Virus record (IMG/VR): IMGVR_UViG_2706794695_000013
Strand: one strand, 5' to 3'
DNA from: a virus
Lineage: Duplodnaviria > Heunggongvirae > Uroviricota > Caudoviricetes
DNA: 38,573 nucleotides
Made by a program: the position numbers and the translations under genes. The notes under the pieces were generated by a model. That model made no database searches. It was not told where the DNA came from and worked only from the letters and a program-made list of their open reading frames with translations. Of this stretch, positions 8,421 to 32,539 are shown in pieces. Every line of letters begins with the position of its first letter. The first letter of the stretch is position 1.

Positions 8421-8910
8421 TTACTGCGAAAGTTTGTTAATGGAAAGGAAGCCGCCAAAGTTGCCGACGTTATTGCGAAACTTACAGCCGCTCAGGCATT
8501 TGCTGCATTTATCCTTCGTGATATCGGACGTCGGCTGATCATATTCATCCGCGACCGCCGGACCGTGATAACCGCACTCATCGCCGCGATAGGTCCAGGT
8601 GCAGGTGTTGGCCAGCATGATACGTCCCGGAAAAACGGCACCGTCCGTTTCCGTCGGCGTGNNNNNNNNNNNNNNNNNNNNNNNNNNNNNNNNNNNNNNN
8701 NNNNNNNNNNNNNNNNNNNNNNCCCTGAATGGGATACGCCTGATACTGTCGCCCCTGCCAGGTGACCGGCTCACCTTTTTCGTTCTGCTCATTACAGAAA
8801 AAATAACGTTCTCCACCGACCTCTGTCAGATCGATTTCCCAGAGCACCACCTGGGCTGACTGAGTGAGGCGTGTCGTCTCATGATGTGTTTCCTGTGGAA
8901 TATCCTGCAT
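8421..8910 (-). CDS. L: Tail tip protein L, interrupted and shortened by N gap 8662-8722
   Basis: N-terminal piece MQDIPQETHHETTRLTQSAQVVLWEIDLTEVGGERYFFCNEQNEKGEPVTWQGRQYQ and C-terminal piece ...RIMLANTCTWTYRGDECGY...GGFLSINKLSQ both match lambda L; total span is shorter than a 232-aa L gene. Confidence 0.8.
8662..8722. other. Assembly gap (61 N) inside L
   Basis: Run of N; part of the L coding sequence is missing. Confidence 0.95.
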
Positions 8911-21970: not shown

Positions 21971-22591
21971 GCCACTCCACCGGGAGGACCCGTCAGCCTG
22001 ACAGACATGACGAACGTCTGATACAGCGCCTTGCATGAATGGCATCGGGATAATCCAGAAAGGAATAGCATCGTGCCCACAAGAATCTGTGTGAGTATCC
22101 TGTTTCTTCCACCCCCGCACAGGACTGGCGAGCATGAGGGACAAACCCGCGAACCATAAACGCGGTAAAAACCCGGTGTGCATCGTTTTTGATTATTCCC
22201 GCACACTCTCGCAGAAGGAGTTCCCCGTCGGGCTACGGTCTCTGTTAATACGGGAATACGGCGACGATACAGCGCATGATGTGTCAGGCTTGAATACCTT
22301 TATCCGTTAAAAGGGATATCAGTTAAGTTATCCCGTGTAGGGTATAAGCCATTATCAAAGCCACTCTGTAGGGAGTGGCTTTTGTAATGGCAATAAAAAG
22401 CCCCGCGAATGCGAGGCTAAATCCAGGTATTTTTAATGACTGGCTCTTATTTCAACGCAGCCCCTTACCGCGCGCCAGATGCTCAACTTCAAGCATCAGC
22501 AATGAGATGTTTAATCTGGATTCACTCCAGAAGTGATCACCACCCTGTCTACAGAGCCAAATGTGAAGGATGATGAGTAAAATTATCGCTA

Positions 22592-23074
22592 TCATCGAAG
22601 GCATTGCGTCCTGATATATTCCTGAAGCGTTCTCAGTGCTGTCTGGTCTCTGATGATTCCGTCCCGGATACCGAGAACGTTTCGTCCAGCAACTGGAGAG
22701 AGTTCGACGGTGGCATCATTGCCCATGCCGGAGGCGCTGGAGGTTTCGGCTGAGGATGGCACAGAGCATTTTCCTTTGACGAGCACCCGACCACCATTAT
22801 CAAGCTTGCGCCGAAGAGCATCATTTTCAGCTTTCGCATCAGCCAACTCCTTCGTGTATTTAGCATCGAGTACATCAGCAGCACGCTGGCGTTGCTGCAT
22901 GTCAGTAATGGTGGCGGTCGCCTGCTTCAGCTCACTGACTTTTTTATCACGCTGTTCTTTGTAGGCGATGGCGTTATCACGGTAATGATTGACCGCCCAC
23001 GACAGGCAGACGATGATGCAGATAACCAGAGCATAAATAATCGCGGCGACTCTGCTCACTGATCTATCCCCCAA
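22592..23074 (-). CDS. Rz: Spanin inner-membrane subunit Rz
   Basis: ...[35 protein letters not shown]...[15 protein letters not shown]... matches lambda Rz. Confidence 0.9.
22633..22839 (-). CDS. Rz1: Spanin outer-membrane lipoprotein Rz1 (embedded in Rz, +1 frame)
   Basis: [21 protein letters not shown]...[14 protein letters not shown]: lipobox followed by a Pro-rich segment, as in lambda Rz1. Confidence 0.8.
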
Positions 23075-23589
23075 CAGGCTAATGCGCTTTCCTGGTCACG
23101 ACGAATAACCTGTCCATAGCAGTTATTTGAACGTATGCGGCAATCGCGCCCACCATCTTTTATCCACCAGCGAATCGCCTCGCATGCACCTTTACGATCA
23201 CCAGCATTCAGCCGCTTATAAAACGTCGACGGAAAACACTTACCGGGGCCAATGTTATAGGGACAAAATGACGCGATACCCGCTTTTTGTGGCTCGGTCA
23301 GTGGTACTTTAATATTGCGCTCCACCCATGCCAGCGCCTTATCACGCTCAATGGCGTTGACCTGGTCGCATTTTTCCTTCGACAGTTTCATACCGGGAAA
23401 AACGGGTTTTCCATCCACCATCGTGGCACCCCGACAGATGGTCCAGATGCCGGACCCATCGCGGTATGCCGTTGTGTGGTTACCTTCTTTTTCATCCAGA
23501 AACTGGTCGAGAATATCAGGCGCGGGCGCACCGACGGCAATCAGTGCCAGAACGGCAGCCGACAGGCCGTATCTGATTTTTGCGTTCAT
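23056..23589 (-). CDS. R: Endolysin, T4-lysozyme-like (GH24) with N-terminal signal-arrest-release (SAR) segment
   Basis: N-terminal Ala/Gly-rich hydrophobic stretch [16 protein letters not shown]; catalytic E-x8-D-x5-T spacing in [16 protein letters not shown]. Confidence 0.85.
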
Positions 23590-23728
23590 GGATATTTATC
23601 AGGATTTATCGGTTTCTGCCCACGGACAGGTTTATCTGTTCCGGTCAGTGACTTAAGGTTGTGATTCCGGAGGAGTCTTCAGAGAACCAGTAATTCTTCC
23701 TGGTAGCTTTCCTTTGTAGGTTATCCAA

Positions 23729-23739
23729 NNNNNNNNNNN
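23729..23739. other. Assembly gap (11 N) inside the holin gene
   Basis: Run of N. Confidence 0.95.
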
Positions 23740-23811
23740 AAACCAGTACCCGGCACTACCTGCTGAGGTGCCATAGGCGACACCCGTTGTTAACTTATCC
23801 ATGGATTTCAT
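23740..23811 (-). CDS. S: Pinholin (phage 21 S21-type class II holin), N-terminal 24 codons only; remainder lost in N gap
   Basis: [24 protein letters not shown] matches S21/EssD-type holin N-terminus; sequence after the gap does not continue the holin. Confidence 0.7.
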
Positions 23812-23878
23812 AACCCCACCTCGCAGATGCGGGTGCTGTGTAATGGAAATAAAAAGGCCACCTGACGTGGCCACCAGA

Positions 23879-25285: not shown

Positions 25286-25406
25286 GTCTTTTTCCCTTCT
25301 GGTTAACATGACATACCAATAACTCTTGTCTAAAAAGCCAGCAAGATAAAAAGTCAGTATTCACGACCACCAGCGTGTTTACTGTACTGCACCAAGTTTA
25401 CGGGTA

Positions 25407-25431
25407 CAAAAAACCCGCTCAGTGGCGGGTT
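25407..25431 (-). terminator. Terminator-like hairpin, copy 1 of a duplicated element
   Basis: aaaaaacccgc tcagtg gcgggtt; near-identical to the copy at 26085-26111. Confidence 0.5.
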
Positions 25432-25508
25432 GCTATCACAGCTATATATTTACTTATTATGCCGTTACTAACATTTATCTTCGACATATAATCGAAAACA
25501 AGGTTTGC

Positions 25509-25934
25509 TTAAAACTCTGCTTTCATTTTATCCGGGAATTTTTTATTTGCAGCATAATAACTACCAAGTACATAAGCGTTCATTTGCTGCTCTACATCAA
25601 CCCGACATGCCGCACTAGAACAAGCTCCACTGATAAGCCCAAAAGAACTCCCTTTAGCAGAGAGATCAGCTTTGATTTCCTCTACAGTGTTTTTCCCCAT
25701 AGCAACTACACACCCTGTCACAATATATCTAGCTTTCACATCATCCATGCTAAGGATAGTAGTTTTCGCAATTTTGCTGTATCCATCATTTTTATAAACA
25801 TCCATGGCAAACGCACGGCAATCTGTATAATACGGACTTGCTTTAACTTGCGAATACTCAGGTAATTTCATACCTGCACAACCAACTAAACAAAAACCTA
25901 TCGCTGCTATTAATACCTTTTTCATTACAGTCAT
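25509..25934 (-). CDS. Lipoprotein of unknown function (AT-rich moron)
   Basis: Signal peptide with lipobox (MKKVLIAAIGFCLVGC); local GC content clearly below the flanking phage genes. Confidence 0.7.
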   Translation of the reverse strand: MTVMKKVLIAAIGFCLVGCAGMKLPEYSQVKASPYYTDCRAFAMDVYKNDGYSKIAKTTILSMDDVKARYIVTGCVVAMGKNTVEEIKADLSAKGSSFGLISGACSSAACRVDVEQQMNAYVLGSYYAANKKFPDKMKAEF

Positions 25935-26084
25935 AACCTAGAAGCATCATTGAAACTAATTTATTAAATAACCATCGAGTTTCTGGAATACAGACGTTAA
26001 CCATCTCTCCAAAATCTAAAAGATAATAAGAAAAAATGTTTAACGCACCAATCCATTTCATAGTTTCATGAGACATCAGGCACA

Positions 26085-26111
26085 AAAAACCCGCTCAGCG
26101 GCGGGTTTTTG
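26085..26111 (-). terminator. Bidirectional rho-independent terminator, candidate tR-prime downstream of Q
   Basis: aaaaaacccgc tcagcg gcgggttttt: GC stem flanked by A-run and T-run. Confidence 0.6.
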
Positions 26112-26153
26112 ACATTTACCAACGGTAGACATACAAGGCCCATCGTTGAGAAA

Positions 26154-26182
26154 ATCTTATCCATATTTTTTGAAAAATGCAA
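26154..26182 (-). promoter_or_regulatory. Candidate late promoter (PR-prime-like) between Q and the terminator
   Basis: On the minus strand TTGCAT, 17-nt spacer, TAAGAT; position is as expected for a lambdoid late promoter/qut region. Confidence 0.25.
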
Positions 26183-26213
26183 GTATCACGTCGACATCTT
26201 CGGCGAAAATTAT

Positions 26214-26966
26214 CTATCTTGTCACTTTTCTCAATTGCGATTCAGCATACGCTTCTTCCTGCCAGCACTTTGTAACCAGTTTATTAATAACGTCTGCATA
26301 TCCTTTGTACCACTGATAATCCGTCAGGTCCGGTACCAGTTTCTGGACATGATGCCGCGCCAGTGTGGTTGGTAAACGGCTAAACCGGTTGCCATTGCAA
26401 CGCCCACAAATCTTATAAACAGGCACACCATGAAGCCGGGTTCTTTTTTCATCCAGGACAATACCTTTACCCTTACACCCTCTGCACGCTGTGCTGACTT
26501 CTCCCTTACCATGGCAATGCTGACATAGTTCCTTCACCCACTCTTCCTTGATAACAGATTCCCCGCTTCTGGAGTGTTTCACCACTTCGCGCAATACATT
26601 ATGAAATCCAGTACCAGCACAATGCTCACAGCGAGCCTTACTTGCCGCAGACCTGGAATAATCAGCAAAGGCAAAATTCACAAGGTAAGGGATGATCTGT
26701 AACCGGGTTTCTTCACTCAATTTGTTCAATGTCGGGTTATCCAGTGCCATCGCGTAATTGAGCAGACCTTCAATCGCAAATTGAGGATCCTGAACACCAA
26801 CTTTTGCCAGGAATAAGGCAAACCCAAGCGGTGCTTTCGACTGCACCATCCCCTGCGCAGCCATCACATCCGTAATCGTTAAACCACCTGAGCCTGTCGC
26901 CGGTGCGTCATCGCTCAATTTTGGAGATTTTGGGGAGTAATATTTTGGTAAGGCTTCAAGGTTCAT
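26214..26966 (-). CDS. Late-gene antiterminator Q-like protein with DnaJ-type Cys-rich zinc finger
   Basis: From ATG 26966 (GGAG SD): MNLEALPKYYSPKSPK...; four CxxCxGxG-type repeats (CEHCAGTG, CQHCHGKG, CRGCKGKG, CGRCNGNR); last gene of the nin-type region before the late promoter and lysis genes. Confidence 0.55.
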   Translation of the reverse strand: MNLEALPKYYSPKSPKLSDDAPATGSGGLTITDVMAAQGMVQSKAPLGFALFLAKVGVQDPQFAIEGLLNYAMALDNPTLNKLSEETRLQIIPYLVNFAFADYSRSAASKARCEHCAGTGFHNVLREVVKHSRSGESVIKEEWVKELCQHCHGKGEVSTACRGCKGKGIVLDEKRTRLHGVPVYKICGRCNGNRFSRLPTTLARHHVQKLVPDLTDYQWYKGYADVINKLVTKCWQEEAYAESQLRKVTR

Positions 26967-26979
26967 GCTCGTTCTCCAC

Positions 26980-27975
26980 TTACGCCAATACGCCAATTGC
27001 CAGCGCACGATCGATAAAACGAAATATCAGCTCCAGCTGGGAGCCATACTTCTCTTCAAATGCCACGGTATCCGCATGCAGCTCGTCGTGATGCTTTCTG
27101 CACAAAGGCAACACAAAGAGGTCATGCGCTTTTGTACCCATTCCACCCTGACCGTGGCCTATCAGGTGGTGGGGATCATCAGCAGGCTTTCCACAACATG
27201 CACACGGCTGTGTCTTAACCCAGCGCGTGTACTTTTCATTAACCCAGCGGCGGCGTTTTGGGCGTAACATAAAAGACTCCGGCGACTCCGGATCCACTTT
27301 CAGCGCCAGCACCTTTTTTGCCTTATCCTGGATGATGCTGGTGGCAGGAACCGAAGGCACAAGGTCACTTTCCCGGGTGACAGACGGCACAACAGGCTTT
27401 GGTAATCTCAGTGCCTTACGGGCTGCACTTTCCGGTAAGGCATCCGCCAGGTCATTACGAATCAGCCACCAGCACAGTTCCGGCATTGTCACAACGTGAC
27501 TATCATCAAAACCGAGATCCCGACGCACAACAGACAACACCCAGCGGGCACAGTTATCCGTTGCCATTGATTCCAGCCGTTCCGTGAACTGATCGCGCAG
27601 CTGGTTATCGCAGTGCCAGCACAGACGGATTGCGCCCGGAGCGTGTCGCATTGTGGTCATGTTCTCGCTGTGCCAGTCGGAATGAGGCCACTGGCAGCCT
27701 TTTTCACGAAGTAACCAGCTTTCAAGACATTCCACGCCACCAGCACGACGGATCACTGCCTCATTGCGGAACACGGCCCGAACGGCAGGATCATCCGCCA
27801 GCGGTTGTGATGCCGCCGGAACGGCACCACTGGCGAAAGATGAATAACGTTCCGGCTCAGGCTCCAGCAGAACACGCCCCTGCATAAACAGGGGCATCAG
27901 CTCTGAACCTGGCCTGAACAATACGATCCCCATACGCGGGGCAATTTCAGGGGTCAGTAGTGCTCTCACGGTCAC
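26980..27975 (-). CDS. DUF968-type nin-region protein with C-terminal HNH-like Cys/His motif
   Basis: 331 aa; C-terminus PCACCGKPADDPHHLIGHG...CRKHHDELH. Confidence 0.55.
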   Translation of the reverse strand: MTVRALLTPEIAPRMGIVLFRPGSELMPLFMQGRVLLEPEPERYSSFASGAVPAASQPLADDPAVRAVFRNEAVIRRAGGVECLESWLLREKGCQWPHSDWHSENMTTMRHAPGAIRLCWHCDNQLRDQFTERLESMATDNCARWVLSVVRRDLGFDDSHVVTMPELCWWLIRNDLADALPESAARKALRLPKPVVPSVTRESDLVPSVPATSIIQDKAKKVLALKVDPESPESFMLRPKRRRWVNEKYTRWVKTQPCACCGKPADDPHHLIGHGQGGMGTKAHDLFVLPLCRKHHDELHADTVAFEEKYGSQLELIFRFIDRALAIGVLA

Positions 27976-31710: not shown

Positions 31711-32539
31711 GACGATGCCCTCCGCTGATATTCAGGAGACGGTGAATATGAAAATTAGCCTTATCCGCCAGACGAATACGTTCAGCTTGCAAGTTAAGAA
31801 GGGTTTCTACCAGAACCTGATGTGCCTGCGGATCCGAAAGAGTTACCTTGCGCAGAGCACGTAGTGCAGTTGTTACATAACTGAGTTTATGTAAGTCTTC
31901 ATCATTCAGACGAGTGAGGGCTGGGACAGTAGCCATGATGGCAGCCTCCTTGATCGGTGAAATACTTCCACCACCGGAAACGCCAATTTCGCTGGTGGTG
32001 AACTGAACGGGGTTGGCGTAACCGGTGATCAAGGAAACCGGCGCATCTTTCGATGCCCCCGCCCAGCCCACCATAACTTTGATGTGAGCAAATGCGGACG
32101 ATAAAAAAGACGCTGGCGCGTCATATATCGCCTTGATCAATTCCAGGACGCCAATCCCGGCACCCGCTTTATAAGGTGCCTGAACAGTGTAACGTCCCGG
32201 AATGGCAGAATCAATGTGCTGGTGGTCCTTCACACTCAACAAAATCACGCCTGAATTTCCACAAAGGACTAAAGCACTCATGCGGGTAGTCTTTGCGAAG
32301 ATAGATAACGCGCTGTGTTTCTGGCTCCCAACGAATAACATGAACATAAAGTCCTCTTCCGTCACGAAACCAGCGGTTAAGTTCCTGCACAACTCGCCCC
32401 CCACAGTCAGGTAAAGTTCTCTGTGGTTACTTACAGCCAGGTGATTTGGTAATCTGCATTCATGCCGTAACAACAGGTGTTCAGCGACGCTGACCACCAG
32501 CTGTTGCGACAAACGGTTATTTGCCGTTAAACTGTTCAT
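31703..32539 (-). CDS. Hypothetical protein, 278 aa
   Basis: GGAG SD upstream of the ATG; ATGA-type overlap with the upstream gene; no Walker motif or recognisable family. Confidence 0.5.
   Translation of the reverse strand: MNSLTANNRLSQQLVVSVAEHLLLRHECRLPNHLAVSNHRELYLTVGGELCRNLTAGFVTEEDFMFMLFVGSQKHSALSIFAKTTRMSALVLCGNSGVILLSVKDHQHIDSAIPGRYTVQAPYKAGAGIGVLELIKAIYDAPASFLSSAFAHIKVMVGWAGASKDAPVSLITGYANPVQFTTSEIGVSGGGSISPIKEAAIMATVPALTRLNDEDLHKLSYVTTALRALRKVTLSDPQAHQVLVETLLNLQAERIRLADKANFHIHRLLNISGGHRHA

Follow-up and report, generated by a model that had tools for sequence, protein, structure and literature searches.

The window analysed here, 38,573 nucleotides from a virus of the Caudoviricetes (IMG/VR record IMGVR_UViG_2706794695_000013), bears a series of genes on its minus strand (Table 1). 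Read in the direction of these genes, a DNA methyltransferase gene is followed by the first codons of a holin gene, by a run of N, by the 3' end of a ydfR-family gene and by a complete endolysin gene, a 63-nt spacer separating the ydfR-family stop from the endolysin ORF. Rz and the endolysin gene share 4 nt (GTGA), at the start of the former and the stop of the latter, and Rz1 is embedded in Rz. Both spanin genes lie outside the interval of the original prediction, and the cassette is completed by them.

Table 1. Features of the lysis region and other elements of the window (whole-window positions).
Feature	Position	Strand	Basis and remarks
Rz i-spanin, 155 aa	22592..23059	-	GTG start; PF03245, E = 8.1e-29; phrog_13 Rz-like spanin, E = 3.4e-72
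Rz1 o-spanin lipoprotein, 68 aa	22633..22839	-	Inside Rz, +1 frame; PF06085, E = 2.9e-21; phrog_3198, E = 1.2e-26
GH24 (T4-lysozyme-like) endolysin, RrrQ / 933W R type, 177 aa, complete, predicted SAR	23056..23589	-	PF00959, 3HDE, 4ZPU, RrrQ, 933W R
Catalytic triad E35-x8-D44-x5-T50	23440..23487	-	Regular expression; phmmer alignment to 3HDE
Candidate SAR domain, residues 7-24	23518..23571	-	After K4 and R6; composition, hydropathy
ydfR-family gene, 3' end	23653..23728 (76 bases)	-	Last 25 codons and stop, WITYKGKLPGRITGSLKTPPESQP then stop; identical to the C-terminus of WP_001545374.1
Assembly gap, 11 N	23729..23739		Stands for ~423 bp; flanks in NZ_CP016546.1
Holin 5' part, 24 codons	23740..23811	-	PF04971 and S21 identity; class II holin/pinholin, S21 (EssD/EssQ) family
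Dual-start motif Met1-Lys2-Ser3-Met4	23800..23811	-	ATGAAATCCATG; ATG AAA TCC ATG opens the ORF
Terminator-like hairpin and T-run	23856..23872	-	Consensus scan, pattern match only; between methyltransferase and holin start
DNA methyltransferase gene, 350 aa	24931-23879	-	PF01555; upstream of the holin
Rfam RNA matches (C4 antisense RNA, isrK)	31991-32078 and 32103-32179	-	Mutually adjacent; early/immunity part of the prophage
Other N-runs	1445-1694 (250 N); 8662-8722 (61 N)		Three N-runs in total with the 11-N gap

The holin fragment comprises the cytoplasmic N-terminus and most of TMD1; it ends at the gap, inside which the last few residues of TMD1 are located. The 24-aa fragment alone matched PF04971 ("Bacteriophage P21 holin S") with 30.2 bits (E = 4.6e-07), compared with a gathering score of 26, and it shares 21 of its 24 residues with S21 from Escherichia phage 21 (OL657228). 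At the level of sequence, this match to S21 and PF04971 is far above chance. The S21 reference sequence, checked by tblastn, proved 100% identical to the gene of the curated phage 21 genome OL657228, annotated there as "antiholin S21-71 / holin class II S21-68". At the DNA level, the essD loci of complete genomes are 100% identical to the fragment. The residues of the dual-start motif are the same as those of the annotated S21-71 and S21-68 starts in OL657228. Phage 21 makes its S21-71 antiholin and S21-68 holin from the corresponding motif, and by analogy both starts of the MKSM motif would be used here, giving a 71-aa antiholin and a 68-aa holin. Within TMD1 (residues 8-24), 12 of the 17 residues are Gly, Ala, Ser or Thr by hand count, a weakly hydrophobic and SAR-like composition. 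In relatives with identical flanks, the full-length holin is 71 aa long, scores 121 bits on PF04971 and is 85.9% identical to S21, 94.4% to K-12 EssQ and 81.7% to 933W S. TMD2, with its Gly/Ser small-residue face, and the basic C-terminal tail (...KRKAARGE) are kept in the genomes with 100%-identical flanks; in the window, this part is gap. The holin matches PF04971 only, and thus falls outside the lambda-type three-TMD class. In NCBIfam, no model matched the holin, YdfR or Rz1.

The product of the endolysin gene matched PF00959 (Phage_lysozyme; E = 1.4e-24, 87.2 bits for a gathering score of 22.3) and, in the PDB, the lysozymes 3HDE/3HDF (E = 4.2e-16 for 3HDE) and K-12 RrrD (4ZPU), all at E of about 1e-16. 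The entries 3HDE/3HDF, which the PDB table labels only as "Lysozyme", are taken here to be R21. The phmmer alignment placed E35, D44 and T50 in register with E35, D44 and T50 of the 3HDE chain, that is, with T4-lysozyme spacing. Over its whole length, the endolysin is 30.5% identical to R21, 93.8% to RrrQ of the K-12 prophage Qin and 91.5% to 933W R. The candidate SAR stretch consists of 18 charge-free residues, 50% of them Gly, Ala, Ser or Thr, with a mean Kyte-Doolittle value of 1.61; the same metrics give 62% and 1.39 for R21, and 24% and 2.50 for the Rz membrane anchor (same window). Published SAR criteria describe two to three basic residues at the N-terminus, followed by a TMD that lacks charges and has many weakly hydrophobic residues. 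The endolysin N-terminus fits this description, and its prediction as a SAR endolysin is supported in this respect. Its GH24 nature and its hydrophobic N-terminal domain also set it apart from the lambda type, which is defined by the lack of an export signal.

These data bear directly on the original prediction, according to which the holin N-terminus matches the S21 pinholin, the endolysin combines a SAR N-terminus with the triad spacing of T4 lysozyme, and lysis is phage-21-like rather than lambda-like. All three points are borne out, the last one at sequence level, through the pairing of an S21-family holin with a GH24 SAR-type endolysin. Regarding overall likeness to phage 21, the holin family agrees, whereas the distance between endolysin and R21 and a gene order of the Qin type, not a back-to-back S-R pair, do not.

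The endolysin N-terminus could also be read as a cleavable Sec signal peptide, in which case the enzyme would be secreted and under some other control and the holin need not be a trigger of the pinholin type. SAR domains and signal peptides are indeed hard to separate in silico, the hydrophobic stretch here is just 18 residues long, and A-V-G followed by A at residues 18-21 obeys the (-3,-1) rule, with a site after G20. By contrast, two of the remaining candidate sites for cleavage have a Pro directly after them, and the partner holin belongs to the S21 family, an experimentally established pinholin family. Moreover, 933W R, which shares the N-terminal design of the present enzyme, is handled in the Young laboratory as a laboratory-stock "SAR endolysin". 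In a study of phage Mu, the SAR endolysins of phage 21, 933W and Bcep22 alone converted a small fraction of cells into spheres, and co-expression of the Mu releasin led to significantly more spheres for all three of these non-Mu SAR endolysins. This increase with releasin indicates that 933W R behaves as a tethered, not as a freely secreted, enzyme. In addition, about 99% of Stx phages were classed as having a predicted SAR endolysin paired with a pinholin (Pinto et al., 2021). Cleavage of the N-terminus as a signal peptide thus appears unlikely, being disfavoured by the behaviour of 933W R.

With regard to the activation of the predicted SAR endolysin, disulfide regulation as in P1 Lyz and Lyz103, which are controlled by thiol-disulfide isomerisation, was considered and rejected. 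Residues 1-51 contain no Cys and the middle residue of the triad is Asp, so that the Cys characteristic of the P1 Lyz / Lyz103 type is absent. Because of this Cys-free SAR domain and triad Asp, activation is more likely to be conformational, and an R21-like switch would be the most likely mode, although its details may differ in an enzyme with 30% identity to R21 and eight Cys. These cysteines, all in the mature domain (C52, C74, C109, C118, C136, C150, C157 and C172, by hand count), are conserved in RrrQ and 933W R, whereas R21 has three. Their conservation suggests periplasmic disulfides peculiar to the RrrQ/933W R subtype of endolysin.

The run of N which interrupts the holin is exactly 11 long, and is almost certainly an undersized gap hiding about 423 bases. 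In NZ_CP016546.1, the 361 bases upstream and the 1329 bases downstream of the gap are found exactly, and the gap edges lie 423 bp apart. This interval begins with holin codons 25-71 (47 codons) and their stop; after a spacer of 4 nt, codons 1-91 of the 116-aa YdfR-family gene complete it. A megablast search with positions 24100-22400 of the window as query (1,701 bases) against 5,426 complete E. coli genomes retrieved 151 records with at least 80% query coverage, the best of them 99.8-100% identical. In the best 25 of these 151 E. coli records, the query spans 2,112-2,113 record bases, and this is likewise the case in phages PhiR40_1 and PhiR55_1. The sequence past the gap does not continue the holin because its 76 bases are the 3' end of the ydfR-family gene, identical, in complete genomes, to the final 25 codons of that gene with the stop. 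The observation of only 24 holin codons before the gap, and of sequence other than holin beyond it, was therefore accurate in the original prediction, as was the proposal of a gap larger than drawn. The other option offered there, a junction between separate contigs, did not hold, since the whole window (1 to 38573) is collinear, at 97-99% identity, with one lambdoid prophage (L004) of NZ_CP016546.1. On both sides of the gap, the common order is tail fibres, tail, head, terminase, lysis, methyltransferase, Q and immunity region.

A break at this point is not surprising. Of the 5,426 E. coli genomes, 4,204 contain the hidden 423 bp with a coverage of at least 80%; the stretch occupies 5 places in NZ_CP016546.1, and the number of places per E. 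coli genome has a median of 2 and a maximum of 11. In such multi-copy prophage sequence, a break in a short-read assembly is expected, and the 11 N would stand for what the assembler could not resolve. As for the other two N-runs, the 250-N run corresponds to about 253 bp of the NZ_CP016546.1 prophage, in a tail-fibre gene, whereas the 61-N run corresponds to about 270 bp near the point where the genes for the C40 peptidase and minor tail protein L meet. N-run lengths are thus only sometimes realistic, and unreliable in this scaffold.

Truncation of the holin is, with high confidence, a matter of the assembly and not of the organism. A real lesion in holin or ydfR, through IS insertion, deletion or rearrangement, would make the prophage lysis-defective. 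The gap bases of this strain are not in the assembly, E. coli often harbours defective lambdoid prophages, and in the related prophage L004 itself an IS3 element and frameshifted genes occur at other places. Yet such a lesion seems quite improbable, since both contig ends lie within the multi-copy stretch, the usual cause of short-read breaks, the 423-bp interval is intact in all the listed genomes with matching flanks, and the other two N-runs are ordinary sequence in the NZ_CP016546.1 relative. A scaffold misjoin of contigs from two prophages or loci, with holin fragment and endolysin derived from different cassettes, might be imagined in a species with several similar lysis cassettes per genome (median 3 places), but is highly improbable and was rejected, because the flanks on either side of the gap are 100% identical to one and the same locus in three complete genomes and the collinearity of the 38.5-kb window with a single prophage continues past the gap.

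An undersized gap, the reading retained here, has a further consequence. With 11 N in place of 423 bp, a shift of 412 bases brings the YdfR tail into the holin frame, and a chimeric ORF (23653-23874, minus strand) arises in which the holin N-terminus is fused in frame, across the gap, to the 25 C-terminal codons of YdfR. With the real 423 bp, the YdfR tail would be out of frame with the holin. This ORF is artificial and is not to be annotated as a gene.

The YdfR-family gene itself encodes, in full, a protein of 116 aa (WP_001545374.1) that matches PF07041 (DUF1327) with E = 1.4e-42. Its best-scoring PHROG families are families of unassigned function, and a literature search on ydfR and DUF1327 found no functional study. 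In cassettes of the Qin type, YdfR might help to time lysis as an accessory factor, for example by modulating, from the cytoplasm, the triggering of the pinholin or the release of the SAR endolysin. Such a role is rather unlikely; the gene is absent from the cassettes of phage 21 and 933W, which lyse without it. If YdfR did modulate lysis, the gene between pinholin and SAR endolysin would be no passive passenger.

Rz and Rz1 have the features of an embedded two-component spanin, Rz with an N-terminal TMD and Rz1, with the lipobox VVGC, wholly within Rz. The Rz protein is 57.7% identical to phage 21 Rz and bears the RefSeq label "lysis protein". Past Rz, a 50-aa ORF (22452-22604, minus strand) shares 13 nt with the end of Rz; its N-terminus is strongly hydrophobic, and it is hypothetical in RefSeq and matches phrog_11822 (function unassigned) with E = 8.6e-38. 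It is followed by a terminator-like hairpin (22418-22399).

Upstream of the cassette, the hairpin between methyltransferase and holin would presumably be read through by a Q-modified polymerase. The Q antiterminator gene (PF03589) is located at 26214-27008. Between it and the methyltransferase gene, a segment of low GC content (25300-26200, 0.35-0.41 compared with about 0.50 around it) contains an ORF of 141 aa (25509-25934, minus strand) with a lipoprotein-like N-terminus, MTVMKKVLIAAIGFCLVGCAG, for which a Pfam search gave no match. The interval 25432-26983 has no counterpart in the otherwise collinear L004, and looks like a moron or a mosaic swap. Farther away, both RNA matches are above the Rfam gathering score, with 82.3 bits for the C4 antisense RNA and 64.2 bits for the Hfq-binding sRNA isrK. 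Outside the window, past the tail-fibre end, positions 1-1746 of L004 (NZ_CP016546.1 1963846-1965745) carry SLATT-domain and reverse-transcriptase-domain genes, a pair that may constitute a retron-like defence module.

Taken as a whole, the region is very probably the lysis cassette in the late operon of a lambdoid prophage of E. coli, on the minus strand, with pinholin, ydfR, SAR endolysin, and Rz with embedded Rz1. A review presents S21-68 as the paradigm pinholin, whose heptameric channels of about 2 nm depolarise the membrane under the regulation of the S21-71 antiholin made from the upstream start. It was shown experimentally that S21-68 cannot release a cytoplasmic endolysin. SAR endolysins, for their part, are exported by Sec, held inactive by their N-terminal domain, and freed on depolarisation. 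From a functional standpoint, we infer a similar course for the present cassette, by homology with phage 21. The endolysin would be exported by Sec and would wait in an inactive state, its weakly hydrophobic N-terminal SAR helix holding it to the inner membrane, while the pinholin accumulates, its timing being set by the 71-aa and 68-aa dual-start products. Pinholin triggering would open nanometre-scale holes and collapse the proton-motive force. This depolarisation would release the SAR domain, so that the lysozyme refolds and cleaves the peptidoglycan, and the Rz/Rz1 spanin complex would then disrupt the outer membrane and complete lysis.

The main value of these observations lies in annotation hygiene, as the length of the N-run (11) is not the size of the gap (about 423 bp). 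A gene caller could report the chimeric ORF as a novel or truncated holin, and the gap is no ground for scoring the prophage as lysis-defective. In biological terms, the locus adds one more copy of a pinholin/SAR-endolysin cassette which is found in most E. coli genomes and in nearly all Stx phages.

Among well-described systems, phage lambda (S105/S107 - R - Rz/Rz1) offers a general likeness, with a dual-start holin, a muralytic enzyme and a two-component spanin in late-operon position. Lambda S, however, is a class I holin with three TMDs that makes holes on the micron scale, lambda R is a cytoplasmic transglycosylase without an export signal, and both the holin and the endolysin described here lie outside the lambda S and R families. 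Likeness to phage 21 (OL657228) extends from the holin family, with the same MKSM dual start, to a GH24 endolysin with E35, D44 and T50 at the same positions and a basic, then weakly hydrophobic N-terminus, and to an Rz gene with embedded Rz1. The differences are nonetheless clear: the SAR stretch has 18 residues here and 24 in R21, the endolysins share only 30.5% identity, with eight Cys in the present one, and S21 and R21 abut, whereas a ydfR/DUF1327 gene separates holin and endolysin here. Upstream, phage 21 has tRNA genes and pR', in place of which a DNA methyltransferase gene is found in the window.

The K-12 cryptic prophage Qin (essQ - ydfR - rrrQ - rzpQ/rzoQ) presents the same order of holin, ydfR and lysozyme, with high identity of EssQ (94.4%, relative to the full-length holin of the relatives) and RrrQ (93.8%). 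However, YdfR is here the 116-aa variant, 56.9% identical to that of Qin and diverged in its C-terminal third, and the spanins are unrelated (16-20% identity), with a DUF2514-type RzpQ in Qin and Rz/Rz1 of the lambda/21 type here. In the Stx phage 933W, R shares 91.5% identity with the present endolysin and S 81.7% with the full-length holin of the identical-flank relative, but S and R are adjacent, without ydfR, an ant gene lies between R and Rz, and the cassette is downstream of stx2/nanS-p. In mEp460, PhiR40_1 and PhiR55_1, methyltransferase, holin, YdfR, lysozyme and Rz follow each other in the same order as here, with 96.6-97.3% DNA identity; mEp460 differs by a shorter, 104-aa YdfR variant, which makes the interval 44 bp shorter. 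Since these three are isolated, viable phages, this type of cassette is functional. The cassette of the window is a mosaic of already-catalogued modules. It is a standard pinholin-SAR system of the Qin/933W type that is already known.
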